IMG/VR virus record: IMGVR_UViG_3300025133_000024
Length of the DNA stretch: 64,000 nucleotides
From: a virus
Reading direction: 5' to 3' (one strand)
Positions 45,184-62,264 of this stretch are shown here, piece by piece; the first letter of the stretch is position 1, and every line of letters begins with the position of its first letter. Position numbers and translations under genes: made by a program. The notes below the pieces were generated by a model. It worked only from the letters and a program-made list of their open reading frames with translations. It searched no databases and had not been told where the DNA came from.

Positions 45184-45226
45184 GTTTGCCTCGCAATGTT
45201 TTGTTATTGGTGACTGCCATGTGTTC

Positions 45227-46115: not shown

Positions 46116-46622
46116 TTAGTAGTGTCGGATGATTTGGAGTATAAAGCGTTCATCCCACTTGCCACGATTATATTGATTGCAGCATTGATTACAAGCTTTT
46201 CTGCCTGTTTTCCATTGTTTGCCCATTCTGGAAAAGTGGAATTGATAATTGCATGTTTGGCAAACAGCAGAGTACTTATAACCCATTGTTGCCGGTGTCA
46301 AAAGATGTCTGTATTCTTCTACATTTGCGCATCTTTCAGGTTTTGCGCCCACCAACAGAGCATATTCTTGCCACTCCAAGTCATGACCCGCGTGAAATCC
46401 AGCCAGAGCGTGTGCTACCTCATGTAAGCTAGTGTTTTCCATGACTTCCATCGGAAGAACAGACGCAAACAAAATCGACAATTCAATCTGGCGTGTTCGA
46501 AAATGTGTTAATCCAAGTGCAGTCGTCCTTTTATTCCAGTGAAAGCTCCAGCCTTCACTCTTACACAGGTATTCCGCAATGTGACTTTCTACCATTCTTT
46601 GAATTTCCAGAGTTTTGCTCAT
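46116..46622 (-). CDS. SprT-like zinc metalloprotease
   Basis: LGLT..R..IELS, HEVAHAL, GHDLEW, CQTC. Confidence 0.9.
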   Translation of the reverse strand: MSKTLEIQRMVESHIAEYLCKSEGWSFHWNKRTTALGLTHFRTRQIELSILFASVLPMEVMENTSLHEVAHALAGFHAGHDLEWQEYALLVGAKPERCANVEEYRHLLTPATMGYKYSAVCQTCNYQFHFSRMGKQWKTGRKACNQCCNQYNRGKWDERFILQIIRHY

Positions 46623-46944: not shown

Positions 46945-46987
46945 GTTTGCCTCGCAATGTTTTGTTATTGGTGACTGCCATGTGTTC

Positions 46988-47015
46988 AATATAAGCAGTC
47001 AAAGAAGGATGTCAA
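46988..47015 (-). promoter_or_regulatory. sigma70-type promoter
   Basis: TTGACA-16-TATATT. Confidence 0.7.
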
Positions 47016-47143
47016 GAGGTTTTTGAAAGTTTTTGATATGTGGGGTTGTGTTGGGTGTTGTGTTGGGTGTTGAAAATGGATTGAGGGGGATGTGAGAGGG
47101 AATAAAAATTGTTTTATTTGGAGGGTTTATGCAAACGAAGAAA

Positions 47144-47172
47144 GCCCCATGAGACAAAGCTTCTCATGGGGC
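47144..47172 (-). terminator. intrinsic terminator
   Basis: GCCCCATGAGA-7nt-TCTCATGGGGC + T-rich tail. Confidence 0.8.
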
Positions 47173-47266: not shown

Positions 47267-47929
47267 TTATTTGTCGTAAAGAGTACCAAAAGTCTCGAAA
47301 GGAGTAGTTGCGGTGATACAGGCGACGCACACATATTCATCGGAGTTGTTTTTGTTTTCGGCTTTCCAGACATTGGAAGAGACTTCCGTCCAAGCGGTCA
47401 ACTCGATGTCTTTGTAGCGGCGCTCCGCGTTCTTTTTGAGTTGTTGGATGCGAACATCCTTTTGCTCTTGTTGTTGTTGAGAGAGATAGGTACGGACGGC
47501 GCTTTCTTTGATTTCTTTCCCATCCTCTTGTTGCGGGAATTGTTCATTGATAGCTTCGGTGAGAAGCGGGATGTTCCAGGATTTATTTTCGGTGGTTTCG
47601 CCTTTGTCGTTTTCGGTGACGGGGGGTGTTTGGCTCAGGAGGGTTGCGACGTAGGCTTTGTGTTCATCCGAGAAGTTGCTGGTACGGCCACGGTGTTTGG
47701 ATTCGAGAGCGGCGTAACCTTCTTCTTCAAACTTCTTTTTGAGGCTGTAGACCGTGTTCATCTGAACACCGTTGTGAAAAGCGACAGCGAGGGCCTTTTG
47801 ACCTTCCGCCAGTTCGAGGAGGATTTTGGCACGGGTTCGTTTTTTCGGGTGGTTTCCTTCGTCGTTCATGATTTGGGTGAGAGTGTCGATTTGAGTCTGG
47901 GTCAGGTCGAATTGGCTTTTCTTGCTCAT
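47267..47929 (-). CDS. HTH protein resembling IS630 transposase N-terminus (no DDE domain)
   Basis: RAKILL..AEG...TVY..KKKFEEEG..AL...RGR..F......L...P...SW....L. Confidence 0.7.
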   Translation of the reverse strand: MSKKSQFDLTQTQIDTLTQIMNDEGNHPKKRTRAKILLELAEGQKALAVAFHNGVQMNTVYSLKKKFEEEGYAALESKHRGRTSNFSDEHKAYVATLLSQTPPVTENDKGETTENKSWNIPLLTEAINEQFPQQEDGKEIKESAVRTYLSQQQQEQKDVRIQQLKKNAERRYKDIELTAWTEVSSNVWKAENKNNSDEYVCVACITATTPFETFGTLYDK

Positions 47930-47981: not shown

Positions 47982-48010
47982 AAGATAAGAATTCAAGTTT
48001 TGTTTGTCAA
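47982..48010 (-). promoter_or_regulatory. sigma70-type promoter
   Basis: TTGACA-17-TATCTT + GGGC-AATAAA-GCCC. Confidence 0.75.
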
Positions 48011-48118: not shown

Positions 48119-48613
48119 TTATTTTTCTTTTTTATATGATTCCAGGAAAGTTTGGAGTTCATCAAGTTTGACAGGGTTGTTCGTTCTATAATGGATATTG
48201 ACAAAAGAATACATGCCATGTTCATCAATGATAACAGGGATTTCCATTTCCACAGCCAACTCTCGTCGTTTCTCACTCAAAAATCTGTTCACATCCACAA
48301 CTTCAGCCCGTGTAAGTTCCTCCGTTGCATCAACAAACCATGGCCCCCAAAATTGAGAACCCACTTGTGTTCCATGAACAGCAATCAGGGCTTGTCCTGA
48401 CAATTGAGTATAGAGGAACAGAATTTTGTTTGGGGGAAGAGTGGAAAAGAATACTGACAAATTCTCTGCTTGTTTTTTGGTTAGAGTGTTGCTTCGGAGC
48501 CAATTAGAATAATAAAAAGATTTGAGGAGTTGGTCTCTTTCTTGTCTTCTCATACGAGATATGTAAAACGATTCAGTGTCAAAAAACAAGTCAATAATTT
48601 GATTGTAAGTCAT
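48119..48613 (-). CDS. protein with distant similarity to AAA ATPase C-terminal domain
   Basis: LTKKQAENLSVFFSTLPPNKILFLYTQL. Confidence 0.6.
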   Translation of the reverse strand: MTYNQIIDLFFDTESFYISRMRRQERDQLLKSFYYSNWLRSNTLTKKQAENLSVFFSTLPPNKILFLYTQLSGQALIAVHGTQVGSQFWGPWFVDATEELTRAEVVDVNRFLSEKRRELAVEMEIPVIIDEHGMYSFVNIHYRTNNPVKLDELQTFLESYKKEK

Positions 48614-48677
48614 CTGTTTTTCCTTTTCCCAAAATTGTTTGGGCGTTTTTGTTTTGGACTTGTTGTCCGATGTGTTC

Positions 48678-48705
48678 AATATAAGCAGTGTTGAATGAAT
48701 GTCAA
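48678..48705 (-). promoter_or_regulatory. sigma70-type promoter
   Basis: TTGACA-16-TATATT. Confidence 0.7.
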
Positions 48706-48724
48706 GGGTTTTTCGTTTTTTATT

Positions 48725-49123
48725 TTACAGATTTTCTAGAGCTTTCATTACAACCCCTTCTTCGTATTTATTTATAATGTCAGCAATTGCAACACCTGGA
48801 GGTTTTTTAGAAGTTGGCATGTTTTTACCATACAATAATTTGAGGTTGCGATAATCGGTATCTTTTGGAACAAGGGCCGAGAACAAGCCAACAAAATGAA
48901 AATCAGGCAATTGTTCCCAAAAAATTTTAAGGTTATCCATTTGCTCAGAGGTGAGTTGTTGGTTCAAAAGATTGGAGTTTTTGAAGCCGTCGTACACAGC
49001 CATGACATAAGCTTCAGGTGTCATGGCAAGTGGTCTTTCTGGACCTTCTTTCAATACCTTTTTTGCAAAAAGATAATTTGAGACACTTGCTTGGCCTTGC
49101 TCTTGTTTATCGATTTTTGACAT
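48725..49123 (-). CDS. stand-alone paralogue of AAA ATPase C-terminal domain
   Basis: FKNS.LL..QLT.EQMDNL..FWEQLP...KDTDYRNLKLLYGK. Confidence 0.8.
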   Translation of the reverse strand: MSKIDKQEQGQASVSNYLFAKKVLKEGPERPLAMTPEAYVMAVYDGFKNSNLLNQQLTSEQMDNLKIFWEQLPDFHFVGLFSALVPKDTDYRNLKLLYGKNMPTSKKPPGVAIADIINKYEEGVVMKALENL

Positions 49124-49154
49124 TTTTGTTTCCTCGGTTTATTATTGTGATATG

Positions 49155-49183
49155 AACATAAGCACTGAGAGTTGTTGTGTCAA
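49155..49183 (-). promoter_or_regulatory. sigma70-type promoter
   Basis: TTGACA-17-TATGTT. Confidence 0.75.
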
Positions 49184-49211
49184 GAGCCTTGTTAACTTAT
49201 TTTTCGTTTTT

Positions 49212-49445
49212 TTATTCACAAGTTTTTTGTTCCTTTATATACCTTTTTACTTTGGAAGTGCAAGGAACATTCGCAAGCTCCTTTCCATAATCCTTGCAAA
49301 AACACAAGTCCGTTTCTTTGTGATAAAAACAGGATAATCTTGTGACTATTTTGCTACATCTTTTGTTTTTTACAATACACCCTTCATTTGTATTTCCAAA
49401 CAAAAAAGAAGAGCCAATAATCAACATCAAAAATAGTTTTTTCAT
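49212..49445 (-). CDS. small secreted Cys-rich protein
   Basis: signal-like MKKLFLMLIIG; 7 Cys. Confidence 0.6.
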   Translation of the reverse strand: MKKLFLMLIIGSSFLFGNTNEGCIVKNKRCSKIVTRLSCFYHKETDLCFCKDYGKELANVPCTSKVKRYIKEQKTCE

Positions 49446-49864
49446 TAACTTGGCGACCAGGCAATTTCTTCCGTGAGATTTGGATTTTCCTCGCAAATTC
49501 TAGCCATAAAAGCTCCTGCTTTTTCACCAGAAGTTGGCATGTTTTTACCATACCATAGTTTGATGTTGCGATAAACGGTATCCTTTGAAGCAAGATAAGT
49601 GAACAAAAGAATCATATCTTTATTACTCAAAGTTTCCCAAAAAACGAGCAAATTTTCCATTTCTTCATGTGTTAGTTCTTTTTCCAACAAATCACTGTTT
49701 TTGAATTGCTCCAAAACAGAATTTTTAACGTCGTTTGTTTGGGGTTGAATACGACCAGCCAACACTCCTTTGGCTACATTATAATAGTTTACTCCTTCAG
49801 ATGGCTTTCTTGATTTTGGTCGCGAATTTGGTTGAAGGATTTTTCTCATATCATCTGAGTTCAT
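49445..49864 (-). CDS. stand-alone paralogue of AAA ATPase C-terminal domain
   Basis: NSVLEQFKN...EMENLLVFWETL..ILLFTYLASKDTVYRNIKLWYGK. Confidence 0.8.
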   Translation of the reverse strand: MNSDDMRKILQPNSRPKSRKPSEGVNYYNVAKGVLAGRIQPQTNDVKNSVLEQFKNSDLLEKELTHEEMENLLVFWETLSNKDMILLFTYLASKDTVYRNIKLWYGKNMPTSGEKAGAFMARICEENPNLTEEIAWSPS

Positions 49865-49912
49865 CTGTCTTTCCTTTTTGTTTTTGTTTTGGGTTCATTG
49901 TCCGATGTGTTC

Positions 49913-49940
49913 AATATAAGCAGTGTTGAAAGATTGTCAA
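49913..49940 (-). promoter_or_regulatory. sigma70-type promoter
   Basis: TTGACA-16-TATATT. Confidence 0.7.
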
Positions 49941-50845
49941 GGGTTTTTGAAATATTTTTCGAGTTTTTTTGCTGTTTTGTTTTTGATTTTCAGTTTTGCA
50001 AAAATTGTTTTCATTCTCGATTTCCAATTGTTCCTGGGAATCGTGACTTGATTGAGAATGAAAGTGTTGTCTGTAATGATGATTTGATAATCATCAATAT
50101 TGCGAACAATGACCTCACTTTCTACATGAGAGTCCTTGATGACCGGAACAATATTGATGGTTGGTGCGCTGTCTTTGGATTCAAATTCAACCCAACAGTT
50201 TTGAATTTTGGAGGCACCAATTCTAGAACCAAGGATTGTTGAACCATTGGCAATTGCTGACTCAGAAAATTCAGAATTTCTCGCAACAGAATTAAAAAAC
50301 CTTGTGTTTTCCAAAGAAGAATCGAGAACACTGGAGTTTAAAATGTGAGAATCATAAATATCACAACCGAGAATCAAGGTATCAGATATTTTACATCCAT
50401 CCATGTTGTTTTCGGTTAGAGTTGCTTGAAAAATTTGAGAGTTGTCAATTGTTGAATTATCAATTTTTGATTTGTCAATTATTGAATTGAAAATTGATGA
50501 CTCACCTTCAATTTTGGAACAAAAAACAAAAGAGTTTCCATAAACAGCAACATCCCTTTCAATCCAGCTTCCATCTTGAGCTAATTGATATTCATGTTCA
50601 ATCCAACCACCAAGTTCATCATCCGAAATTCTTTTGATTTGGTACAAGATTCTGTCACCTTGTTTCTTGCTTTCTCCTGAAAACTCCCAAAACTTTTCTT
50701 CAATCTTCAAAAGTTTTATCATCCGAATCATAGAAAGCGATAAATGACCTGCAATTGCTTGCTCAAAACATGAAAAACAAATACCCTCAGATACAGATTT
50801 TAAACTTACTCCCTTTCCACAGACATCACAAGAAAAAGTAGCCAT
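49937..50845 (-). CDS. Zn-ribbon + pentapeptide beta-helix protein, paralogue of 45340-45993
   Basis: CDVC..CFSC; YQIKRISDDELGGWIE..QDGSWI; xSxIx repeats. Confidence 0.75.
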   Translation of the reverse strand: MATFSCDVCGKGVSLKSVSEGICFSCFEQAIAGHLSLSMIRMIKLLKIEEKFWEFSGESKKQGDRILYQIKRISDDELGGWIEHEYQLAQDGSWIERDVAVYGNSFVFCSKIEGESSIFNSIIDKSKIDNSTIDNSQIFQATLTENNMDGCKISDTLILGCDIYDSHILNSSVLDSSLENTRFFNSVARNSEFSESAIANGSTILGSRIGASKIQNCWVEFESKDSAPTINIVPVIKDSHVESEVIVRNIDDYQIIITDNTFILNQVTIPRNNWKSRMKTIFAKLKIKNKTAKKLEKYFKNP

Positions 50846-50895
50846 CTTTGATTTTCCTTTTCCCAAAATTGTTTGGGCGTTTTTATTATGACATA

Positions 50896-50924
50896 AACAT
50901 AAGCACTGACGGTTGATGTGTCAA
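50896..50924 (-). promoter_or_regulatory. sigma70-type promoter
   Basis: TTGACA-17-TATGTT. Confidence 0.75.
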
Positions 50925-50937
50925 GAGCTTTGTTATT

Positions 50938-51123
50938 TTATTTTTCCTTATTTTCTTCATAATTCAACGAAAAATAAACTACATCATTCTCTTCAAGTTC
51001 TCTATTGATAACAGTAGCACTTCCAAATTTACGAACATTCAAAAGTGCTTTTGGACCCAAAAATAAACAAATATAGTTAGCTCCAAACTCATGTCGCAAA
51101 AGCCTCATATTCCCTTTTTTCAT
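50938..51123 (-). CDS. small KG[DE]L...LxY family protein
   Basis: MKKGNM...LNYEE. Confidence 0.6.
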   Translation of the reverse strand: MKKGNMRLLRHEFGANYICLFLGPKALLNVRKFGSATVINRELEENDVVYFSLNYEENKEK

Positions 51124-51332
51124 TTTTGCTTCTCCTCTTTATAGTCAAGTTGAGTATAATAACCCAATATTGATTTCATTTCTGAAATATAATCATAATA
51201 AATTCCTACAAATCCAGAATGTTTTTGAAAACCCAAATACCAATATCGTTCTGAATCTGTTTTTAAAACCAATTCAAGCCTTTCATCGGTGTCGCATAAA
51301 AACACCATTCCCTTTTCAAAGTCACTTATCAT
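51120..51332 (-). CDS. small family protein, close paralogue of 51829-52059
   Basis: SDFEKGM...YTQLDYK. Confidence 0.7.
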   Translation of the reverse strand: MISDFEKGMVFLCDTDERLELVLKTDSERYWYLGFQKHSGFVGIYYDYISEMKSILGYYTQLDYKEEKQK

Positions 51333-51640
51333 TATTGTTTCTCCTCATAAGTTAATAAAGTTTCATCTTCAAGAACATTAATCGAATATTTATCTATTTT
51401 TGTTTTTTTTCTATCAACATAAAGAGAAGTTAAACCCCTAGATTCATCTTCGTAATTCTTAGCGTATAAAAAAGAATAATCAAACTCTCTAAAGCCATCC
51501 TCCAATTTAATATAGCAACAACCTGTCCCCAAATCAATCACTAAAGCTTCAAGATGGTCATTTTTATTTGACAATACTAATTGAAGATCTGGTGCAGAAA
51601 AAACATACTCTTCAATTTGCAAACTACCTTTTGTTGTCAT
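51332..51640 (-). CDS. small KG[DE]L...LxY family protein
   Basis: TKGSL...LLTYEE. Confidence 0.65.
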   Translation of the reverse strand: MTTKGSLQIEEYVFSAPDLQLVLSNKNDHLEALVIDLGTGCCYIKLEDGFREFDYSFLYAKNYEDESRGLTSLYVDRKKTKIDKYSINVLEDETLLTYEEKQ

Positions 51641-51842
51641 AATCCAACCTCAGTAAAACTTTTGGATGTGGAGCAGTCACAAAGTTATCTTCATCGAAAC
51701 AAAAACTTTGGTCTCTGTCAATTTCGTCTTGAATAAAAAGAAAATGAAAATTCTCAAGCAAAAGAACCTTTCCATCCAATTGCAAATAAATCTTTGCTAA
51801 AATCTTGTCATTTCTTCTTATATACAAATCACCCTTTTTCAT
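51624..51842 (-). CDS. small KG[DE]L...LxY family protein
   Basis: MKKGDLY...LDYD. Confidence 0.65.
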   Translation of the reverse strand: MKKGDLYIRRNDKILAKIYLQLDGKVLLLENFHFLFIQDEIDRDQSFCFDEDNFVTAPHPKVLLRLDYDNKR

Positions 51843-52059
51843 CTTGTTTCTCCTTTTTGTAATCAAGTTGTGTGTAAAATTCCAATATTCCTTTCATCGA
51901 TTTTATAGGGTAAAACGAAATCGCCACTTCGACATCATGTTCCGGGTTGGTGCCAATACCAAGAAATGTATAACGATTTGATTCTACTTCCAAAACCAAT
52001 TCAATGCGAGAACCCTTATTTGAAAGAAACATCATTCCCTTTTCAAAGTCACTTTTCAT
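51829..52059 (-). CDS. small family protein, close paralogue of 51120-51332
   Basis: SDFEKGM...YTQLDYK. Confidence 0.7.
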   Translation of the reverse strand: MKSDFEKGMMFLSNKGSRIELVLEVESNRYTFLGIGTNPEHDVEVAISFYPIKSMKGILEFYTQLDYKKEKQDEKG

Positions 52060-52102
52060 TTTTGCCTCAAATGTTTTTGTTAAAAGCTATGACCATAGGT
52101 GC

Positions 52103-52130
52103 AATATAAGGTGCCAAAGGGGAATGTCAA
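52103..52130 (-). promoter_or_regulatory. sigma70-type promoter
   Basis: TTGACA-16-TATATT. Confidence 0.7.
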
Positions 52131-52211
52131 GGGGTTTTTGAATTTTTTTTGAGGGGACATACGGAAGAGGGTGATTGAGGAGGTTATGGTGAGGATGAGA
52201 GGGAAATAATT

Positions 52212-52400
52212 TTATTTATTGCGTTTATATTGTTGGGTGTGGATGTTGTAGAATGATATGTCGTTTAGATATGTTAAAATTTCTATATGGTCGTTTTTTT
52301 CAAAGAAAATCATTTGAACAATGTCACCTGAGGATGTTACTAGACACAGAGTAGGAAGAGTTGTGTTTCTATACAGAATATCGCCCTTTTGAATTTTCAT
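52212..52400 (-). CDS. small KG[DE]L family protein
   Basis: QKGDILY. Confidence 0.55.
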   Translation of the reverse strand: MKIQKGDILYRNTTLPTLCLVTSSGDIVQMIFFEKNDHIEILTYLNDISFYNIHTQQYKRNK

Positions 52401-52438
52401 TTTGTACAGAGAAGATTTGGAGAAATAACTTTTCTTTA

Positions 52439-52642
52439 TCATTTGTTTTCCAAAAATTGTTTGTTATCAGGATTTTCGAAAAATTGAATCATTTGTTTCA
52501 GAAAGTCTTTGGAGATTTCAACATAACCCTCAGAATTATATGAAAATATGTTCTTTTTGTTCAAATCAAAAAATTCAACACTCTCTTTTCTAATGTTTAT
52601 CCCAACTTTCCCAGATTGAGCTTCTTTAACAATTACACTCAT
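52439..52642 (-). CDS. hypothetical protein
   Basis: ORF, ATGA overlap. Confidence 0.55.
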   Translation of the reverse strand: MSVIVKEAQSGKVGINIRKESVEFFDLNKKNIFSYNSEGYVEISKDFLKQMIQFFENPDNKQFLENK

Positions 52643-52770
52643 TTTTTGTCACCATTTTCCCAGGTTGGTGATGTTTTACTAGTCCCCAAAAACAGAACAA
52701 AATGAAATGGCTCTATTGTATATTCTTTGGGAATTGTGAAAATTGCTCCTTTCATATCTTCAAATTTCAT
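52639..52770 (-). CDS. 43-aa truncated small-family member
   Basis: MKFEDMKGAIF...; GGAG SD. Confidence 0.4.
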   Translation of the reverse strand: MKFEDMKGAIFTIPKEYTIEPFHFVLFLGTSKTSPTWENGDKK

Positions 52771-52801
52771 GATATGGTTTCTCCAGTGATTGTGTTGAAA
52801 T

Positions 52802-52878
52802 TGGTGGTTCCAGTGGGATTCGAACCCACATTCGTTCGCTTATGAGGCGAATGCTTTAACCAATTTAGCTATGGAACC
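52802..52878 (-). tRNA. tRNA with CAT anticodon (Ile2 or elongator Met), CCA encoded
   Basis: GGTTCCA/TGGAACC acceptor, TTCGC-CTCATAA-GCGAA, TTCGAAT loop. Confidence 0.9.
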
Positions 52879-52911
52879 ATTCTAAAGTTATTTGAAATCA
52901 TGAATTTAAAG

Positions 52912-52985
52912 TGACCCCGGTGGGATTCGAACCCACACTTGAAGGATTTTAAGTCCTTTGTCTCTGCCAATTGGACTACGAGGTC
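52912..52985 (-). tRNA. tRNA-Leu(TAA), short variable loop
   Basis: GACCTCG/CGGGGTC, AAGGA-CTTAAAA-TCCTT, TTCGAAT loop. Confidence 0.85.
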
Positions 52986-53035
52986 AAGATAAGACAAACC
53001 CGTTATGAGGAGGCAGGTTGTTGTCTTGTGGGTAT

Positions 53036-53064
53036 AGTATAATCACCCTGAGAGATATTGTCAA
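53036..53064 (-). promoter_or_regulatory. sigma70-type promoter for tRNAs
   Basis: TTGACA-17-TATACT. Confidence 0.85.
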
Positions 53065-53218
53065 GGGCTTGAGAAAAGAAATTTTCTATTTTTCATGCTA
53101 TCAATTTGATAAGAAGTCAATCTTTTTATCCTAACTTTTTTCCTTCTATTTCCAGAACAACATTATTTGAAATAAACAAAGATAGCCATAAATTACCTGT
53201 GTGAATCGCTCCTTTCAT
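53061..53218 (-). pseudogene. frameshifted small-family member
   Basis: MKGAIHTG...; continuation in -1 frame at A_AAA_AAG. Confidence 0.4.
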
Positions 53219-53219
53219 A

Positions 53220-53432
53220 TTATGGGAACCTCTTTCTATTTTTGTATTCTAATGTATCATAATTCCTTTCCAATATTTCCTTGTCATCCCCACTATCAAA
53301 AACAATACTAATATAGTTATTTGCAACTTCTAATTCAATAACTTCATCGTCACTCCTTATGTCAGCCCTCAAAAATATTGAGTTACCTTCTCTTAACAAT
53401 AATAATGTTCCTTTTTTATAATTTTCACTCAT
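53220..53432 (-). CDS. small KG[DE]L...LxY family protein
   Basis: KKGTLL...LEYK. Confidence 0.6.
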   Translation of the reverse strand: MSENYKKGTLLLLREGNSIFLRADIRSDDEVIELEVANNYISIVFDSGDDKEILERNYDTLEYKNRKRFP

Positions 53433-53640
53433 CCTCATACCCCATAACATGATAAGCTTTATCTTCTCTACGTTTTAATCTCTTTAAAAAATTTGGAAGG
53501 AGACAAGAAGCATTCCAATCAAAAATATCCACACAAATGTTCTGAGAAATCACACGAAAAGCCAACTTTTCCCTTCCTAAAAGCAAATGAATAACATTTT
53601 CATGTCCATTGTATAAAAGCAACATTCCTTTATTTTTCAT
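53425..53640 (-). CDS. small KG[DE]L...LxY family protein
   Basis: NKGMLL...MGYEDE. Confidence 0.6.
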   Translation of the reverse strand: MKNKGMLLLYNGHENVIHLLLGREKLAFRVISQNICVDIFDWNASCLLPNFLKRLKRREDKAYHVMGYEDE

Positions 53641-53641
53641 C

Positions 53642-53791
53642 CTATTCATCCTCATATGTCAATATGTGATAATCATTTTTCAAAGACTCTAAGTCACCAG
53701 CGTCAAAAATCAACTCAATTCTCAAATAAAGAACATTTCGGTCTTTAAACAAAAATAATGTTCCTTTCTCAAAATTTCTGACCATCTTCAT
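53642..53791 (-). pseudogene. doubly frameshifted small-family member
   Basis: FEKGTLF start; ILTYEDE* end in another frame. Confidence 0.45.
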
Positions 53792-53792
53792 T

Positions 53793-54113
53793 TTAAACCT
53801 CGATTAACATAAATTGCAAATGATAGAGGATGATTGCAAGGTAACACAAAAAAGCAATAACAATACAAATGATTGACAAAACTCTATGATGATATTTCCA
53901 AAGAATCCATGCACCAATATTAACCAAAAATACCTTCACAGCCATAAACACTATTGGAGAATATTGCAAAAACATTTTCATGATTGGATTGGCCTCCTCA
54001 GCCATTTGCATCCAAACCCAATATATTGTAAAAATTCCATCAATAACATTCATAAGAATAATCAAGATTATCAACTGTCTCAAAACCATGCTCTTTTCTT
54101 TTTTTTCTCTCAT
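53793..54113 (-). CDS. DUF5658-like membrane protein
   Basis: LMNVIDGIFT...EEANPIM, three TM segments. Confidence 0.75.
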   Translation of the reverse strand: MREKKEKSMVLRQLIILIILMNVIDGIFTIYWVWMQMAEEANPIMKMFLQYSPIVFMAVKVFLVNIGAWILWKYHHRVLSIICIVIAFLCYLAIILYHLQFMLIEV

Positions 54114-54152
54114 GAAACTCTCCTTGCTGCTACAATTTTCACCAACACCACC

Positions 54153-54181
54153 ATCATAGACATTCACACCACCCATGTCAA
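54153..54181 (-). promoter_or_regulatory. sigma70-type promoter
   Basis: TTGACA-17-TATGAT. Confidence 0.85.
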
Positions 54182-54285
54182 GAGGAAAAGAAAAATAATT
54201 GCTTCTAGGGCACTTCTAGTGGGATATAAAGAAGGGAAACAAGGGTAGGGGTTAGGAGGAGTAACAGGCTTGTCTTGCCGTTACT

Positions 54286-54504
54286 TCAGGGGTCTTTGTG
54301 AAAGGGATATGAAAGGTGGGAGCATATAGACCTGTCAATGTCTTGCATTGAATCTTCTACAGTATATTTTGCCATTCTAGTTTCGTTTTCATAAAGTTCA
54401 ATTGAATAATGGTTATCGTAGGTATTTGGTCGAGTAGATTTGATAGTATTACAAACCAACTCAATTCTTTCATTATAGAGGATTAAACTGCCTTTTTTAA
54501 TCAT
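54286..54504 (-). CDS. small KG[DE]L...LxY family protein
   Basis: MIKKGSLILY...LSYP. Confidence 0.65.
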   Translation of the reverse strand: MIKKGSLILYNERIELVCNTIKSTRPNTYDNHYSIELYENETRMAKYTVEDSMQDIDRSICSHLSYPFHKDP

Positions 54505-54691
54505 TTGTTAAATGCTCACATTCTTTATATTCAATATGCAATAAGGAAACCTCGATAGAATAGTTTTGAAGATATATGGCATCAAAAGAAATATCAAAAT
54601 CAAAAGAGATGTGGCTATCTTCTTGTTTGTTACAAGATAATACAATTTCTAGACTATTATTATATAACAACATGTCACCTTTTTTAATCAT
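54497..54691 (-). CDS. small family protein, tandem paralogue of 54684-54878
   Basis: MIKKGDMLLY...KECEHLTND. Confidence 0.7.
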   Translation of the reverse strand: MIKKGDMLLYNNSLEIVLSCNKQEDSHISFDFDISFDAIYLQNYSIEVSLLHIEYKECEHLTND

Positions 54692-54878
54692 TTGTTAAAT
54701 GCTCACATTCTTTAGAGCCAATATGTGACAAAGTGACATTAACAGAATAATCTTGAAGTACTCCACGTAATAAAGGAATACTATAATCAAATGAAAGGTG
54801 ATTTCTTTCATTCTTTTCACAAGATAAAATAATTTCCAGATTATTATCGTACAATAACAAGTCACCTTTTTTAATCAT
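54684..54878 (-). CDS. small family protein, tandem paralogue of 54497-54691
   Basis: MIKKGDLLLY...KECEHLTND. Confidence 0.7.
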   Translation of the reverse strand: MIKKGDLLLYDNNLEIILSCEKNERNHLSFDYSIPLLRGVLQDYSVNVTLSHIGSKECEHLTND

Positions 54879-55423
54879 TGTTGCAAGCCCTTTATATAAT
54901 AATAAAATTCATGCCAATTGGAAACACAATGCGAACCATCTGTTTCTCTGTTCCAGGGTCTTTTCATAACAACTGAAATGCCCTTGTTTGCTTTCCATGC
55001 TTTTAAAGTTTCTGATTTATCTTCTAAAATGATTTCTCCAGGTTTTGCCAACAAATGTTTTTTACAACAAAAGATAACATTTTCCTGAGGGATGAATGGA
55101 AGATGTTCTCTTAACCATTCTCTTTTATCCCTTTCACAAGTTTCAGCAGCAATGTGGGGGGCTGTTACAATATAAACTTCATGTTCTTCATCAAGTTGTT
55201 GGATAATTTCAATTGCATTTTCATATGGTTTTAAATTTGGTCCAAAAAATCCAGGTTCACGCAAATAATTCCTTATTGCATCTCCAATTTTAACATGATT
55301 TCCAAGGTTGAAAGTTGTTATCTCTTCTCTTGTTACATTGTCATCAAAGTCTTTATTGTACCTTGATAACCAAGGCTCAACAAGATTAACAATGACCCCA
55401 TCCATATCCAAATATATTCTCAT
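54875..55423 (-). CDS. 5'(3')-deoxyribonucleotidase (HAD, NT5C)
   Basis: YLDMDGV, IVTAP, KREWLREHLPF, LED, PWN. Confidence 0.9.
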   Translation of the reverse strand: MRIYLDMDGVIVNLVEPWLSRYNKDFDDNVTREEITTFNLGNHVKIGDAIRNYLREPGFFGPNLKPYENAIEIIQQLDEEHEVYIVTAPHIAAETCERDKREWLREHLPFIPQENVIFCCKKHLLAKPGEIILEDKSETLKAWKANKGISVVMKRPWNRETDGSHCVSNWHEFYYYIKGLQQ

Positions 55424-55638
55424 GTGATTCCTTTCTTTTTGTACCTTAGCTTTATTAAATCAAGTTCATGATAACGTCGATAATCTGGTATTAATTGAAC
55501 CCTATCTTTATCACCTCTATTATGAATTGTTAAAGTTTTACCATTGTGTAATATTAACCTTATCTCCATATAATAACTTTTGTCCTGAATATAAGGGTAG
55601 CAAATTACTGTTCCTGGTTCAAAATAATGCATTTTCAT
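55420..55638 (-). CDS. small KG[DE]L-like family protein
   Basis: EPGTVI...LRYK. Confidence 0.55.
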   Translation of the reverse strand: MKMHYFEPGTVICYPYIQDKSYYMEIRLILHNGKTLTIHNRGDKDRVQLIPDYRRYHELDLIKLRYKKKGIT

Positions 55639-55870
55639 GTTTACTATAACTCAAGTATAATATATGTTTGTAAACTTCTTGTCCTTCATTTACACCTATT
55701 CTAGGATTTATATCCAATCGAGGAAATGATTTGCTATAGTTGAAAAATAAATCATGTTCATTACCGAGATATAATCTTAAGAAACAAAAGTCTTTATTCA
55801 CTAGTATATCACCTTTGTTTCCTAAGGTTATTTTTTTAAAGGGTTTACGAGGTTTCATCAACTTCAACAA
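55619..55870 (-). CDS. small KG[DE]L...LxY family protein
   Basis: NKGDIL...LSYSK. Confidence 0.6.
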   Translation of the reverse strand: MLKLMKPRKPFKKITLGNKGDILVNKDFCFLRLYLGNEHDLFFNYSKSFPRLDINPRIGVNEGQEVYKHILYLSYSKHENALF

Positions 55871-56249
55871 CTACCTCATGTTCTTCTTCAACAGTCAAAA
55901 GGTCGAGAAGTTCTTCACCTGTAATCTGAGAGGAATCAATCAGAGCTTTGATAGACGTAAGAGCATATTTTTTGCTTTTTTCCTTTTGCTCTTTTTCGAT
56001 TTCTTTCCGAAGTCCTTTCTCTTCATCTGTTTCTGGTCTTGTTCCCCAAATGTTATATTTGGCTTTTGAACCTTGATTTGTATCAGCCATCACAAACTCA
56101 ACAAGTCTTGCTTTATGAGACTCTTCAGTGCTTTTCCAATCTTTCTTTAGCTCTTTCATAAGAAGGTCAAAATCGTCTTCGGTCTTGACATCCACAAAAC
56201 TTAGAAACGCAACTTTTTCTCGGATAATATCGTTCTTGTTATTGCTCAT
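55845..56249 (-). CDS. hypothetical protein
   Basis: start MSNNKND shared with 37526-37741. Confidence 0.65.
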   Translation of the reverse strand: MSNNKNDIIREKVAFLSFVDVKTEDDFDLLMKELKKDWKSTEESHKARLVEFVMADTNQGSKAKYNIWGTRPETDEEKGLRKEIEKEQKEKSKKYALTSIKALIDSSQITGEELLDLLTVEEEHEVVVEVDETS

Positions 56250-56430
56250 CTTTGTCTCCATATGAGTTAATATATTTTGGTTCTATAAAGGTTTCAACTT
56301 CTGTGTCATACTTATCTTCAAAGGCTAACTCTATGTTCTCTTCTTTTAATAATATTAAGGAAAGGTTTCCTTTTAAAGCTAATTCAATAGAATCACTCCA
56401 TAGAATTAAAGTCCCTTTGTTTATCTTCAT
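56239..56430 (-). CDS. small KG[DE]L...LxY family protein
   Basis: NKGTLI...NSYGDKDEQ. Confidence 0.65.
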   Translation of the reverse strand: MKINKGTLILWSDSIELALKGNLSLILLKEENIELAFEDKYDTEVETFIEPKYINSYGDKDEQ

Positions 56431-56457
56431 GTTCTGGGTTTTCCCTTGTGGGAGTAC

Positions 56458-56517
56458 ATAACAATAAAAGCCCTTGAAATCAACACAAAGTATAGTCTCA
56501 AGGGCTTTTATTGTTAT
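56458..56517. terminator. bidirectional terminator-like inverted repeat
   Basis: 20-bp perfect arms, 20-nt loop. Confidence 0.75.
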
Positions 56518-56540
56518 CTGTTATAGACTAATAATCCAGA

Positions 56541-58322
56541 TTACTGGAAAACGTAATATCTAATTGCCATACCGATGGCAAGAAGGACCGTTGCAAACAT
56601 TAGGATGGACAGTGGTTTGATTTTTTGAATAGAAACTGACTTGCTTGTTGAATATTCAATTGCGGGCTTCTCTCGTGGGTCCACAACCGTCATTTCTTTT
56701 GTCTCTTCTTCCAGTTCTTCAGCAACAACAATTTCAGTGCAAGCATCCAGGTTATGGTCTTCACACACTTCAACATCATATCCCATTAGAGAATGAGAAA
56801 CATCACCTTCTCGGAACAAGGAGAGAGACACAAGTTGATTGTAAAAACTTACTTTCATTTTGACATAAAGGATTAATTCACCTTCTTCTTCAAGAGAAAC
56901 AATATGCTCCATGATGTCTTTAAGAGTTGAATACACTCTTGTTGTTTTTCGGAGTTGAATCACTTGTTGCTCATAATCTTCAGCCTTTGTCAAAAGAATA
57001 TCATTTGCAGAATGAAGATTATTTTTATCAGCATCAAGTTTTCTTACTTGTTTTTCAAAGTCACTAATTCGTTGATAAAGAGACTTAATGCCAGACGATT
57101 GCTTGATAAGTTGACCTTCTTGGTCTTTGATGACATGAGTTGCATCAATCAAAGCTCGACCTTCAGTTTCACGCTTTCTTTTCTCTTGTTCAAGTTTGGT
57201 TTGATGTTGGATTAAAACCTGTTGAGTCCCTTTCAATGTCTCTGAAAGGATTTTTCTTTCCTTTTTATCCCTTGAAATCCTTTCCATTCTTTCTTTGAGT
57301 TTTTGCTTCAAGTCAACAATGGATTTTTTGGATTGTTCTAGTTGCTGAGAGAATTCAGATACTTCAATCTGCTTTGATTTAATATCCGAAGCAAGTTTTT
57401 TTCTCTCCATAACCAGCTTTTCTTTCAAATTGCCAATTCTGTTGTCTGTCGAGATTCTCAACTTTCGAAGTTGTTCTTTCGCAGTCTCAGATTCAGCAGT
57501 AAGCTCCAGAACTGTCTTAGCAAGCTTTGTTTTTTGCTCCTGAGAGTTAGATTCTTTCTTTCGCAGATTGGAAACTTCTGTTTCAAGAAGACGAATTCTT
57601 GCTTGTTCTCTAGTTGGAGGTTGAACAGTATCAAGCACAGGCTTCTTTTTCATCACCTTTGCTTTGGGAAGTGAACTTGCTCCGGGAGGAGATTGATTTT
57701 CTGCCATATACCTTTCAACATCTTCTCTTTTCAAAACTCGAAAGGATTCTTGACCATCTTTGGTGAATTTTCGACCAAAATGACAACATCCAACTCGACG
57801 GTACTCAACACAATATGACTTGCAAGTTTGCCACAAGCCATGTTTGATAAGTTGTTCCTTCATTTCAGGAGAAACATAGCACATGATAACGGAACCTGCA
57901 TACTGAGGCGTTCTAAGTTCTTTTAAAACAATTTCAAACAAAGCTTGCAGTTCTTTTTTGGTTGCTCCAGAAGGATTGAAACCGATTCTTTTTGGAGCCT
58001 TCGGCTGTGCTTTGGTTTTAGGTTGGGTTGGTGTAATTTGATTTTTGTTGTTTTCTTTCTCTAGTTTTGCTCGAATAGCTTTCAGAACTTGTTCCAAATT
58101 TAGAGGCTCAAGTTGTTGTTGAAGTTGTTGACGTGGTGTTTGGGGTTTTGTTGTTTGTGGGTGAACTTTCCACCGTTTTGTTGGAAGGGGACGAGGGGGA
58201 ATCATTGCAACACCTCTTTCTTTTTTTGTTGAAGGAAGTTGACCAAAGATTCGTTCAAAATCTTCCAATAGTTGGTCAAAAGGTTCTTGTTTCTTTTTGT
58301 TGTCTTTACTGTTCACTTTCAT
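56541..58322 (-). CDS. long coiled-coil protein with C-terminal membrane anchor
   Basis: heptad-rich middle; LSILMFATVLLAIGMAIRYY tail. Confidence 0.8.
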   Translation of the reverse strand: MKVNSKDNKKKQEPFDQLLEDFERIFGQLPSTKKERGVAMIPPRPLPTKRWKVHPQTTKPQTPRQQLQQQLEPLNLEQVLKAIRAKLEKENNKNQITPTQPKTKAQPKAPKRIGFNPSGATKKELQALFEIVLKELRTPQYAGSVIMCYVSPEMKEQLIKHGLWQTCKSYCVEYRRVGCCHFGRKFTKDGQESFRVLKREDVERYMAENQSPPGASSLPKAKVMKKKPVLDTVQPPTREQARIRLLETEVSNLRKKESNSQEQKTKLAKTVLELTAESETAKEQLRKLRISTDNRIGNLKEKLVMERKKLASDIKSKQIEVSEFSQQLEQSKKSIVDLKQKLKERMERISRDKKERKILSETLKGTQQVLIQHQTKLEQEKRKRETEGRALIDATHVIKDQEGQLIKQSSGIKSLYQRISDFEKQVRKLDADKNNLHSANDILLTKAEDYEQQVIQLRKTTRVYSTLKDIMEHIVSLEEEGELILYVKMKVSFYNQLVSLSLFREGDVSHSLMGYDVEVCEDHNLDACTEIVVAEELEEETKEMTVVDPREKPAIEYSTSKSVSIQKIKPLSILMFATVLLAIGMAIRYYVFQ

Positions 58323-58551
58323 TTTCTCCTGTTTCTTGTGTTTGCCATGCGGGTTTCGCTAATGGTGGAAACTTAATTTTCCCAGAATCCACCAATTTAC
58401 TGAAAAAGTTATTGTATTGAGGTTGAAGTCTGTACAAAATTCCTTTATTATATAAGTTGATAAAAAGGTTCACAATTTGAGTGTCTTCTAACTCTCCTTG
58501 TTCTAGTAAAAAAATTTGATTTAATATCTCTTCAGGAATTTCGACTTGCAT
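58306..58551 (-). CDS. hypothetical protein
   Basis: GAGG SD. Confidence 0.6.
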   Translation of the reverse strand: MQVEIPEEILNQIFLLEQGELEDTQIVNLFINLYNKGILYRLQPQYNNFFSKLVDSGKIKFPPLAKPAWQTQETGENESEQ

Positions 58552-58599
58552 TGATTAACCTCATGTTTGCTATAAATAGTTTTTTTTGTTTTTCAAAAA

Positions 58600-58992
58600 T
58601 TATTTATTCTTTTTAATTCGAATCCAGATAAATTTACCTCTCATGCTCGAATATTGCACTTTAGACTTCTCTACATAAAACCGATAATCACATTTCAATC
58701 CGATTTCCGACTTATAACTCTTCTTATACCAATTCGAAATTCGTTTCAAATTCTTGTATAATGAACTAGCTTTAAATCGAACCCAATTCTTCCTCCTTTT
58801 GCATCTTTGTTGGTACATTGAATATAAGTTTTCTCTTTGTTTGGTTCCATTGGCCTTATATGAAACTTGACATCTTTGTAAAATAACAACTTTCAACGTT
58901 TCATGTTTTGGTTTCCTTTTTTTTGCCAAAATGTTTTTAGGAACAAACACCATACAAATCATCATAACACAGAACCAAAGTCTTTTCAACAT
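58600..58992 (-). CDS. basic secreted/membrane hypothetical protein
   Basis: N-terminal signal-like segment. Confidence 0.6.
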   Translation of the reverse strand: MLKRLWFCVMMICMVFVPKNILAKKRKPKHETLKVVILQRCQVSYKANGTKQRENLYSMYQQRCKRRKNWVRFKASSLYKNLKRISNWYKKSYKSEIGLKCDYRFYVEKSKVQYSSMRGKFIWIRIKKNK

Positions 58993-59044
58993 CTTTTTTT
59001 CTCCAACCTAAATATTTTTTGTGATTAAAACGTGCAAGACATAT

Positions 59045-59263
59045 TCAGTCTCTTTTTGTTTTTGTTGGTTTGTATACCACGCCTATCCAACTCATGGGAA
59101 TCCACAACATTTCTCTTGTCTCAAAAAAAACAAAACAATGGTCCATGTGCAAATCAAACTTGATAATGATACCAGAAAGAGCTTGACCCATAGCGTCAGG
59201 ATACATACGACAAAGCATATCACCAACTTTAACTTGACAATCATTGCCAGTGATATACTTCAT
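59045..59263 (-). CDS. small SH3/Tudor-like protein
   Basis: KVGDM...GIIIK...CFVFF...WIP. Confidence 0.6.
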   Translation of the reverse strand: MKYITGNDCQVKVGDMLCRMYPDAMGQALSGIIIKFDLHMDHCFVFFETREMLWIPMSWIGVVYKPTKTKRD

Positions 59264-59267
59264 TTTG

Positions 59268-60455
59268 TTATCGGATTGGAACAACTTGTTCATTTGTCGC
59301 AAAATAAGGACGTTCAAAGTTTTCTTCGTCCGTCAACCAAAGACGCTGAACTTTGCACGGACCCGGTGCTGGAGCTTGCATATCAGTCAAAATGATAAGT
59401 CCATCATAATGACCTTCATTTGCAAAGTCCGTAATGCAGTTGAAACAAGTTCCTCCACATTTCACACGCTCCAAGTTTGGAATCGTTCCACGTTTCCACT
59501 CATATACAAGCTCAGTCAAAACTTCCGTATCAAAAGGCGCAACAGTGAAAGTTGCGAATTTCGAAAGAGCAATCAATTCCGCGAAAAACATCTGAAGGAG
59601 TTTGTCAGAAACCGACCCACTCATATCAACACCAATCAAGAGTTTTGCATGGCGAACAGTCTTTTTTCCAGGGTGCTGATAGGGGAACCTTCGGTTCAAA
59701 CGGCGCATGGTTCCACGCTTTTCACCACGTTGGGAAGTTTTGATGAAATATCGCAACACTCCCTTCCAATCAACAAAGTTCTGAAGTGCTGCCAAAATCT
59801 GCTTCTGAAGTTCAGATGGGACAGAGCCCCAACCTCGTTCTGCACTTTCCTTTGCAGCTTCTTCCATAAGGTCTCTTGCTCTTTTTGCAACCATTCTTTT
59901 CATGATGTCTTTTGCTTCGTTGGACAAGTTTTCCATATTTTGACCCCATTGAGAGTGGTCACCCATATTTCCAACTTGCGAGAACTTCTCTTTTTCTTGC
60001 AAAATTCTCAAGAAATAAGCTTCCGACATTAACTTTCTGGGGAAAGTGCTGAACGGACCTTCACCAGGGACACAACCACCTTCTGGAAGTTCTTCGTGAG
60101 GAATCCAAGAATTGATGGCAAGGTCGGTTGCAAGGTTCCAAAAATGATGTTGGTCTTCTTCTTTTTTCCGAGAAGTGACATGCTCCCAAATAATGTGCAA
60201 GAATTCATGTTTCAACAAACCACGCCTTTGGTCAGGATTCAAAGACAATATGAATTTAGGGTTGTAAATAAGCTCAAAGTAACCTCTTTCGTTCACCCGA
60301 ACACCAGCAGTCGGAATCGACATAGAAGCTTTCTTCGAAATGTGCCTTGAAATACAAGCATAAAAAGGCTCATCTTTCAAAAGTTGAAACACATCATAAT
60401 TCAAATCATAATTCACTCTCGGTTTTCTAACAGGAACCAAAGTCTCTTCAGACAT
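59268..60455 (-). CDS. DUF2201 metallopeptidase + VWA domain protein
   Basis: TAGV, LKHEFLH, NLATDLAIN; DMSGS MIDAS, GGT, ILTD. Confidence 0.9.
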   Translation of the reverse strand: MSEETLVPVRKPRVNYDLNYDVFQLLKDEPFYACISRHISKKASMSIPTAGVRVNERGYFELIYNPKFILSLNPDQRRGLLKHEFLHIIWEHVTSRKKEEDQHHFWNLATDLAINSWIPHEELPEGGCVPGEGPFSTFPRKLMSEAYFLRILQEKEKFSQVGNMGDHSQWGQNMENLSNEAKDIMKRMVAKRARDLMEEAAKESAERGWGSVPSELQKQILAALQNFVDWKGVLRYFIKTSQRGEKRGTMRRLNRRFPYQHPGKKTVRHAKLLIGVDMSGSVSDKLLQMFFAELIALSKFATFTVAPFDTEVLTELVYEWKRGTIPNLERVKCGGTCFNCITDFANEGHYDGLIILTDMQAPAPGPCKVQRLWLTDEENFERPYFATNEQVVPIR

Positions 60456-60496
60456 TTTTCTCTCTCCAAGAATATTGTAAATAAAAAATGAACTAG

Positions 60497-60534
60497 AAAA
60501 TGAACCCGGAATGTGATAGTTCCGGGTTCATTTT
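60497..60534. terminator. terminator-like hairpin between ATPase and VWA genes
   Basis: 15-bp perfect arms aaaatgaacccggaa/ttccgggttcatttt. Confidence 0.7.
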
Positions 60535-60549
60535 GAGCGAAAGCTTTAT

Positions 60550-61701
60550 TTAGCTTTCGTCATCTTCGCCTTGAAGTTCCTTAAGCTTCTCAGTGAGTTC
60601 ATCTTGGTCAAAGCCACTCACAATGTCAGCCATCCAAATACCAGACCATTTGTTGGCTTTGGGATATTTCTTGCCGTGCCACAGTTTGATGTTGTGGTAA
60701 CCGGTATCTTTCGCGGCCAAAGAAGTGAACAGAAGGATGGCATTTTCGGGGGGCAAGTATTCCCAATACTCCATCAAGTTGCCCATTTCAGCATCACTCA
60801 AGTCTTTCGCAAGATGAGAGCCATTTTTGAACTTGTTGAGAATGCTGTTATGCTCGTTCAATTCCATCGTCGGATAACGGTCACGACGCTCACCAGCGAG
60901 AACTTGAGCAGGACTAACTTCGTATTCCAAAGTCTCTGCATAATTTCTCAGAGCGATTGCAGCCTCCTCACCAACGAAACCAGCAGCCAAGCTGTAAAGC
61001 TGGAGGGTTGTCTCTTTCGTGAAGAAACCAGCACGGTCAGCACACTCGGAAAGACGGAACCAAGAACGACGGGAAGGATAGATTTTGCTCGGGTCATAAG
61101 TGCCCTTGTGCTCAAGATGCTCAAAGTGCCCCGCAATGAAGTCCCAAACGGTTTGGTGAACTTTACCAGCAGCGTATTGAAGCCAATCATCCACGGACGG
61201 CTCCACATCCACAATCCACCAACGGTCACTCTCGGCAGGGTCCATTTCGCTCACTTGGTAATGGGGTGCGTTCTTCCCACCATTCACAGCAGCGAAAATC
61301 TTGGTTCCAGGGTGAAGGACTTGACCGAAAATCTTGCGAGAATCAGCCAGTTCGAAGAAACCTTGACGAACCTCAGGGATTGCGCGGTCCAATTCATCCA
61401 TGAAGAGAACAACGGGCTTGGAACAAGCTTCGTAAAACCAATCCGGCGGGTTGAAAGAGGTGGTTTTCTTTTTCTCGTTCATTCGAGGCAGACCAATCAA
61501 GTCACCCTCGGTCATCTGTGAAGCACGACGCTCAACCACCGGAAGACCAAGGTCTCTGGCGATTTGATAAACGACTTCCGATTTGCCGACGCCGTGGGCA
61601 CCACGAATCAAAACCGGAAAACCTTCAGGGTCTTTCTTTTTGGAGGTGATTTTGGGGCCGATGATTCCGGCTGCAACGATACGAAAAGTTTGAAAATCCA
61701 T
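60550..61701 (-). CDS. MoxR/dynein-related AAA+ ATPase
   Basis: GAHGVGKS Walker A, LFMDELDRA Walker B, AAVN, DPAESDR, SRRSW. Confidence 0.9.
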   Translation of the reverse strand: MDFQTFRIVAAGIIGPKITSKKKDPEGFPVLIRGAHGVGKSEVVYQIARDLGLPVVERRASQMTEGDLIGLPRMNEKKKTTSFNPPDWFYEACSKPVVLFMDELDRAIPEVRQGFFELADSRKIFGQVLHPGTKIFAAVNGGKNAPHYQVSEMDPAESDRWWIVDVEPSVDDWLQYAAGKVHQTVWDFIAGHFEHLEHKGTYDPSKIYPSRRSWFRLSECADRAGFFTKETTLQLYSLAAGFVGEEAAIALRNYAETLEYEVSPAQVLAGERRDRYPTMELNEHNSILNKFKNGSHLAKDLSDAEMGNLMEYWEYLPPENAILLFTSLAAKDTGYHNIKLWHGKKYPKANKWSGIWMADIVSGFDQDELTEKLKELQGEDDES

Positions 61702-62150: not shown

Positions 62151-62225
62151 CACACCCGATAGGATTTGAACCTATGACAAATGAATTAGAAAACCGATGC
62201 TCTATCCTGACTGAGCTACGAGTGC
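62151..62225 (-). tRNA. tRNA-Arg(TCT)-like gene with unpaired anticodon stem (possible pseudo-tRNA)
   Basis: acceptor, D and T arms pair; anticodon stem TCGGT/TTCAT has 1 WC + 1 GU pair. Confidence 0.6.
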
Positions 62226-62236: not shown

Positions 62237-62264
62237 AATATAAGCATCAATCAGTCAATGTCAA
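62237..62264 (-). promoter_or_regulatory. sigma70-type promoter for tRNA-like gene
   Basis: TTGACA-16-TATATT. Confidence 0.7.

Follow-up and report, generated by a model that had tools for sequence, protein, structure and literature searches.

Free-standing copies of the C-terminal domain of a MoxR-class AAA+ ATPase in an uncultured marine phage

The pairing of a MoxR-class AAA+ ATPase with a von Willebrand factor A (VWA) metallopeptidase has been noted in large phages, where it is proposed to act as an assembly chaperone and co-chaperone with a peptidase, in virion assembly and proteolytic processing (Iyer et al. 2021, PMC7824862). The locus described here lies in a 64,000-nucleotide stretch of viral DNA (IMG/VR record IMGVR_UViG_3300025133_000024), hereafter the window, to which all positions refer. 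It resembles the phage MoxR/vWA pair, as well as NorQ-NorD and CbbQ-CbbO, in that an AAA_5 ATPase adjoins a VWA protein with an N-terminal HExxH domain, and its AAA+ module superposes on those of NorQ and CbbQ. However, both NorQ and CbbQ are entirely without the C-terminal helical domain, here called the tail domain, that ends the phage ATPase. The locus also differs from the described phage pair, since it comes with three small genes that encode this domain free of the ATPase motor, and no such copies are present in the paper (PMC7824862) or in the contigs examined.

Single-domain relatives of larger proteins are described in other settings. The microProteins of plants and animals, such as miP1a/b, are small single-domain proteins that come from a larger multi-domain parent and carry only its interaction domain; these eukaryotic developmental regulators have been shown to trap their relatives in inactive complexes (PMC4807768). 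The phage copies stand in a similar relation to their parent, but they are phage genes known by sequence, and the invariant residues of the parent domain have been lost. A second parallel is offered by ClpT1 and ClpT2, which are stand-alone relatives of the N-domain of Clp chaperones. In plastids, these small paralogues of an AAA+ chaperone accessory domain join and modulate the partner protease, and their association with the ClpP ring has been shown experimentally (PMC7966870). The ClpT proteins further differ in belonging to the Clp/Hsp100 clade rather than the MoxR class, in deriving from an N-terminal rather than a C-terminal domain, and in their unrelated fold.

Three motor-less copies of the ATPase tail domain

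The three copies, ORF139, ORF132 and ORF164 (ORF, open reading frame; Table 1), are located approximately 11 kb downstream of the ATPase/VWA pair on the same strand. In pairwise BLASTP comparisons, ATPase residues 258-379 align with ORF139 at 41% identity and residues 292-382 with ORF132 at 35% identity, while the third copy, taken as 164 or 186 codons (48119-48613/48679), matches at 24%; ORF139 and ORF132 are 51% identical to each other (E=1e-25). The weak pairwise score of the third copy alone (E=4e-4) could be taken for a chance or compositional similarity of unrelated small ORFs to the ATPase tail. This explanation is refuted by the E-values of the other two copies, down to 2e-23, and by a hidden Markov model (HMM) of the tail domain built from 55 foreign ATPases of the family, with no local sequence, and searched against each of the 691 stop-to-stop ORFs that the window contains. 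This profile returns the ATPase itself at 8e-16 and ranks the three copies (1.5e-8 to 5.3e-5) above the 687 other ORFs, the best of which scores 0.086. Because a profile free of local sequence places all three copies on top, the distant third copy is also real. ORF164 consists of a diverged domain followed by an extension of about 60 residues at its C-terminus, for which no relatives are detected, and it appears as a 164-aa gene in public gene calls. An alternative TTG start at 48679 was rejected for this gene, as it falls in the -10 region of the gene's own promoter; the real start is the ATG at 48613, in agreement with the sequence-only reading and the public gene calls.

None of the copies has a P-loop match in Pfam or NCBIfam, and the rest of the window contains no remnant of the ATPase core (by tblastn) or of the VWA gene. 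The alignment of the ATPase to the copies begins where the lid helix ends, at residue ~258; either the domain alone was duplicated, or the domain alone has survived. The sequence-only reading of this DNA had proposed a MoxR-type AAA+ ATPase with a VWA partner and three copies of the ATPase tail without its core, the third being more distant. These proposals are borne out: the ORFs are located where that reading placed them and match the peptides it quoted, the assignment of the pair is agreed upon by Pfam, Foldseek and motif conservation, and the copies are recovered both by pairwise alignment and by the foreign profile.

The AlphaFold 2 (AF2) model of ORF139, the sole copy modelled, has a mean predicted local distance difference test score (pLDDT) of 87 and a predicted template modelling score (pTM) of 0.76. 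Its seven helices (27-36, 44-56, 66-76, 81-94, 99-105, 116-126 and 130-136) parallel ATPase helices 264-376, the alignment used for the model having included the ATPases. In a fold search of the ESM Atlas, the model matches a cluster of AAA_5 phage ATPases with a template modelling (TM) score of 0.59, along with 202-aa and 211-aa viral 'hypothetical protein' clusters (TM 0.63 and 0.50) that are listed without identifiers. The best match in BFVD is a 357-aa protein of phage G (E=0.07), whose length fits the ATPase family. No PDB entry is matched by the ORF139 model with Foldseek at E<=0.001, and a sequence-profile search of the PDB gave nothing. The nearest folds in a wide VIA search are generic ARM/HEAT-like helical repeats (best Z 6.2), a result that is uninformative for helical bundles. 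PHROGs, NCBIfam, PADLOC and Pfam provide no name for any of the copies.

Each copy is equipped with its own expression signals. Predicted sigma70-type promoters of the form TTGACA-N16/17-TAT(A/G)TT sit 50-90 nt upstream of each copy, and a Shine-Dalgarno sequence, AAGGA or GAGGA, precedes each ATG. Such promoter sites occur 13 times in the window, all on the gene strand and all within 42.6-63.5 kb, against 0.2 expected by chance; the earlier proposal that every copy has its own promoter is therefore supported by the sequence. The stop codon of ORF139 overlaps the ATG of a 77-aa Cys-rich ORF (TAATG), which is also called as a gene on public contigs. Because of this overlap, the 77-aa ORF is probably co-transcribed and translationally coupled with ORF139.

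The copies have so far been found in a single phage population. A sequence search among 5.8 billion proteins returns no relative of ORF139 other than itself, tblastn against 50,697 GenBank phages gives no match, and a profile scan of IMG/VR finds nothing. Nor does any other free-standing copy emerge when 1.84 billion representative proteins are searched exhaustively with a profile: besides the three copies, the hits are one ATPase (P0005) and two short proteins. The latter were considered as free-standing copies and rejected as ATPase fragments, because they begin with the lid helix and are either located at the end of a contig or preceded by a likely frameshift. In four related large-phage loci (L010-L013), inspected over 10 kb on either side of the ATPase/VWA pair, a small sample with short flanks, the domain occurs in the ATPase only. 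The literature on DUF2201 and on phage MoxR/vWA modules yielded no description of such copies, and neither this literature nor the protein databases gave a second example, in agreement with the sequence-only reading, which knew of no description of the arrangement. Altogether, the motor-less tail-domain copies are a real and apparently previously unreported arrangement, and they represent a variant of a known phage module that is specific to this lineage.

Table 1. Positions of the tail-domain copies, their signals and the parent module (window positions, unless a related locus is named)
Feature	Position	Strand	Description
Copy 1, ORF139	49445..49864	minus	139 aa; E=2e-23 to ATPase; 1.5e-8 to foreign family profile
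Copy 2, ORF132	48725..49123	minus	132 aa; E=8e-19 to ATPase; 4.4e-5 to foreign family profile
Copy 3, ORF164	48119..48613	minus	164 aa; E=4e-4 to ATPase; 5.3e-5 to foreign family profile
Predicted sigma70-type promoter of ORF139	49913..49940	minus	TTGACA-16-TATATT
Predicted sigma70-type promoter of ORF132	49155..49183	minus	TTGACA-17-TATGTT
Predicted sigma70-type promoter of ORF164	48678..48705	minus	TTGACA-16-TATATT
MoxR-class AAA+ ATPase	60550..61701	minus	383 aa; AAA+ core and lid at residues ~30-260
C-terminal helical domain of the ATPase, parent of the copies	60550..60918	minus	residues ~262-383; all-helical in model
VWA-metallopeptidase (DUF2201_N + DUF2201)	59268..60455	minus	395 aa; 95 nt downstream of ATPase gene
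Cys-rich ORF, hydrophobic N-terminus	49212..49445	minus	77 aa; called as gene on public contigs
CCHC zinc-knuckle-like protein	L011 7977-8585; L012 7591-8214		upstream of ATPase

The parent ATPase and its VWA-metallopeptidase partner

The gene at 60550-61701 encodes a MoxR-class AAA+ ATPase of the NorQ/CbbQ-like type. It passes the Pfam AAA_5 cut-off (34.1 bits against 22) and matches phrog_1297 over nearly its full length (1.5e-45). Its AF2 model (pLDDT 84) comprises an AAA+ core (30-165) and a lid (170-258), followed by eight helices (264-376), and the best Foldseek matches are NorQ (9qh4/9qh8; E 1e-10, TM by target 0.63), then CbbQ (6l1q). In an alignment of 56 relatives, the Walker A (GxxGxGKS) and Walker B (hhhhDE) motifs, the sensor Asn and the arginine-finger Arg are invariant. 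Since the NorQ and CbbQ structures, of about 255 residues, cover the motor alone, the last ~120 residues of the phage ATPase constitute an extra domain beyond the motor. Alignments show that this domain is kept throughout a family of ~350-aa ATPases, with H284, P317 and E319 as invariant residues and N282, K290, N308, Y312, L316, L324 and N337 as near-invariant ones. Relatives of this length, about 50% identical, form more than 3,800 metagenome clusters at E<=1e-10, and more distant ones are found in N4-like and other phages.

The VWA protein encoded by the adjoining gene passes the Pfam cut-offs for an N-terminal HExxH domain (PF13203, 2.8e-17) followed by a VWA-like domain (PF09967, 9.5e-9). 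Both its HExxH residues (H83, E84, H87) and those of the metal ion-dependent adhesion site, DxSxS (D277, S279, S281), are invariant among 42 relatives. Its relatives form more than 4,100 clusters at E<=1e-10, and the ATPase/VWA gene pair is present in thousands of metagenomic phage contigs, as well as in N4-like and other phages. A complex prediction of the VWA-peptidase with ORF139 scored 0.00, which weighs neither for nor against binding.

Two further observations concern the module itself. The G+C content at third codon positions (GC3) is 0.51 in the ATPase gene and 0.38 in the VWA gene, against 0.22-0.31 in neighbouring genes, and the homologous pair is likewise GC3-rich relative to its neighbours in three of the four related phage loci (L010-L012). 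High GC3 is a property of the ATPase/VWA module rather than a sign of recent import. Immediately upstream of the ATPase gene, related large phages encode a protein of ~205 residues with two CCHC zinc-knuckle-like motifs (C..C..GHN.RTC). The ORFs of ~200 aa at this place in L011-L013 had been considered as members of the two ESM Atlas clusters of similar length, and were rejected as such since they are these CCHC proteins.

Descent, selection and possible function of the copies

A maximum-likelihood tree places the three copies together with the local ATPase domain on one side of a branch with support 100/99, a grouping that carries a long-branch caveat, and makes ORF139 and ORF132 sisters (support 99/83). 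The copies and the local ATPase also have in common a set of residues absent from the family: F291, K292, N293, W313, E314, K331, D332, T333, Y335, K339, L340, G343 and K344. From the tree grouping and these lineage-specific residues, the copies arose inside this phage lineage. Their GC3 of 0.31-0.35 is typical of the genome, in contrast to the 0.51 of the ATPase gene. The tree suggests that the copies have evolved faster than their parent; Tajima relative-rate tests of the copies against the ATPase domain are not significant.

Between the ATPase tail and the copies, synonymous sites are saturated (proportion of synonymous differences, pS, 0.71-0.80), with nonsynonymous divergence (dN) of 0.46-0.58. 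Since the three frames are still open at such divergence and their expression signals are kept, selection is argued for. In a substitution-only simulation at 20% change, 2.6% of runs leave the ORF139 frame open; at 40-50% change, about 0.2% do. The two closest copies, ORF139 and ORF132, give a ratio of nonsynonymous to synonymous divergence (dN/dS) of ~0.8 over a 76-codon core, a value drawn from few codons and compatible with relaxed constraint. Within that comparison, and again over few codons, the motif KDTxYRNxKLxYGKNMP shows a proportion of nonsynonymous differences (pN) of 0.07, against 0.36-0.53 in the flanking segments. The sequence-only reading had given a dN/dS near 1 as a sign of decay; the value comes part of the way towards it, while the intact frames and the conserved motif argue against simple decay.

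It could nevertheless be supposed that the early region duplicates readily and that the copies are functionless by-products, drifting remnants still open by chance. The dN/dS of ~0.8, the loss of conserved family residues and the lack of a homologue outside this phage in database searches would all suit such an origin, as would the recent duplicates nearby, namely the 97-99% repeats at 39.6-40.4 kb and the 92%, 300-bp repeat at 44.9/46.7 kb. This explanation is improbable, given that three frames of 132-164 codons remain open at 24-51% identity, an outcome reached in at most 2.6% of neutral simulation runs per gene, and that a near-consensus promoter and a ribosome-binding site are kept at each copy. 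The conservation of core positions N308, L316 and L324 and of the 17-residue motif, the confident ORF139 model and the agreement of the copy boundaries with the domain boundary also speak against it. We infer with fair confidence that selection maintains the copies, and that they are expressed as proteins with the fold of the parent domain.

As to what these proteins do, the tentative but most likely reading sees in them binding modules without a motor, favoured by selection, that would act on the ATPase/VWA-peptidase machine as competitors or by redirecting it. Within this phage lineage, three duplications of the tail domain alone gave rise to an array of small genes, each with its own predicted promoter for the host RNA polymerase, and the products would offer the binding scaffold only. 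The copies would take the place of the tail domain on the substrate or partner that the ATPase tail recognises, and their occupancy would titrate, time or redirect the remodelling machine, as microProteins do with their parents. Fast-changing surfaces together with one strictly kept motif would fit a shared docking site with diversified specificity. The main hint for a link to the machine is this motif, which in the form KDTxY(H/R)NxKLxxGK is kept in the local ATPase and two copies, is variable in the wider family, and would fit a common partner specific to the lineage. A broader proposal, which we regard as possible yet doubtful, is that the phage regulates its own AAA+ chaperone-protease machine by a small, diversifying set of domain-only paralogues of the ATPase recognition domain. 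As viral 'microProteins' expressed from early promoters of the host type, these would compete for the clients of the machine or retarget them.

Several findings weigh against a role in the machine. Twelve positions of the domain show at least 90% conservation in the family. Ten of them are retained in the local ATPase, against 4, 5 and 4 in the copies (pooled Fisher p=0.007), and none of the copies has H284, K290 or E319, three residues that never vary (100%) in ATPase-borne domains. The ancestral interaction may thus have been lost. With these three residues replaced, the copies probably no longer do the ancestral job of the domain, and a role outside the machine becomes conceivable. To these points are added the dN/dS of the two closest copies, the confinement of the arrangement to one phage population, and the presence of several other paralogue families in the surrounding early region, where duplication is commonplace. 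The positions that the copies do retain are mostly core-like (N308, L316, L324). The copies therefore appear to keep the fold, but they have lost the conserved polar site of the family, to which they belong by descent and fold rather than by that site. The polar site may be a dock for the motor, in which case it would be dispensable in a free domain, or a site for a partner.

Some of these findings also favour an explanation that is nearly as likely, in which the copies are neofunctionalised early proteins whose scaffold came to bind other targets, host proteins during takeover being the likeliest, and which now work independently of the machine. Besides the three lost invariant residues and the high amino-acid divergence of the two closest copies, the genomic layout favours it. 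The segment at 39-52 kb is an array of promoter-plus-small-gene cassettes, which, from the analogy with other large lytic phages, is read as an early region transcribed by the host polymerase. In such phages, a layout in which every small gene follows its own strong sigma70-type promoter is typical of host-takeover regions, and the copies are placed in such an array. The coupling of ORF139 to the Cys-rich ORF and the new 60-residue tail of ORF164 both suggest new contexts, and the fold weakly resembles generic ARM/HEAT-like binding scaffolds (Z ~6). Recruitment to host targets is countered by the motif kept in the ATPase and two copies, which hints at a shared partner, and by the lack of a known or predictable host target.

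The early region and the significance of the copies

The source phage is an uncultured marine phage of ~180-188 kb, of which near-identical assemblies are available from several marine metagenomes: the window shares 99.97-100% identity with four public contigs (JGI 3300008050, JGI 3300025066, ENA ERZ27249009 and a Logan run). Megablast of the 47-62 kb segment found no close relative among GenBank phages. The window has a G+C content of ~32%, holds nearly all of its genes on the minus strand, and includes phage-typical genes such as PhoH, glycosyltransferases, a 5'-nucleotidase and virion-protein-like ORFs.

The cassettes of the early array have a recurrent structure. Between 39261 and 52150 on the minus strand, at least 12 conserved elements of ~60-70 nt consist of TTGACA-16/17-TATATT followed by a short hairpin of the GGGC...GCCC type, which would stand at the 5' end of the predicted transcript; each element precedes a small ORF, with a spacing of 300-650 bp at 40.3-44.2 kb. 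Two adjoining units of ~360-375 bp at 39615-40372 are 97-99% identical and give rise to twin ORFs of 85 and 90 aa (39727-39999 and 40102-40359), which points to a very recent tandem duplication. Six successive ORFs of 61-75 aa at 37526-38792 (minus) are apparent diverged tandem paralogues, several of them with (K)KGD(L/V)x(I/V) near the N-terminus. A second pair of paralogues (49937-50866 and 45340-45993, minus) has in common an N-terminal segment, ...QIKRISD..GGWI....SQDGSWI..., that precedes beta-helix-like repeats, the 45.3-kb member containing ~15 tandem units of 15/18 nt that encode NS(N/T)V(T/I)NN runs.

At the turn of the cumulative GC skew (~38-40 kb), five tandem 42-bp repeats that are 91-100% identical (38763-39034) adjoin the end point of two public assemblies of the phage. 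Direct repeats of 200-300 bp, 88-92% identical, flank cassettes (44930-45229/46691-46990, 92% over 300 bp; 43938-44135, 45190-45387 and 46951-47148), and these dispersed repeats probably explain the breaks of public contigs in the early array.

Other genes of the surroundings deserve mention. A 220-aa protein at 47267-47929 (minus) has IS630-type helix-turn-helix domains (HTH_32, HTH_29) without a transposase core; its GC3 is 0.575, against a genome-typical 0.22-0.31, and the gene is bracketed by a promoter of its own (47982-48010) and a strong terminator (47144-47172). Two small ORFs on the minus strand, 46116-46622 and 37072-37656, contain the HExxH-type motifs HEVAH and HECGH and may be SprT- or zincin-like proteins of the early array. 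Finally, a tRNA-like gene at 62151-62225 (minus; Rfam 48.9 bits), to which ARAGORN assigns no anticodon ('tRNA-???', tc), has a consensus promoter directly ahead of it (62237-62264).

The ATPase/VWA-peptidase pair is among the most widespread conserved modules of marine and large phages, and the splitting off of the tail domain marks this domain as an independent unit that probably binds a client or a partner. If the copies modulate the machine, regulation by domain-only paralogues would extend to viruses, and viral microProteins of this kind, should that reading hold true, would be without precedent among viruses and within the MoxR class. Otherwise, the case still documents the recycling of a conserved enzyme's accessory domain into fast-evolving early genes. 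The copies, as small soluble baits of 130-160 residues, could serve to find what the ATPase tail binds, and the main value of the finding lies in this handle on the binding target of the tail domain in a very common, uncharacterised phage ATPase.

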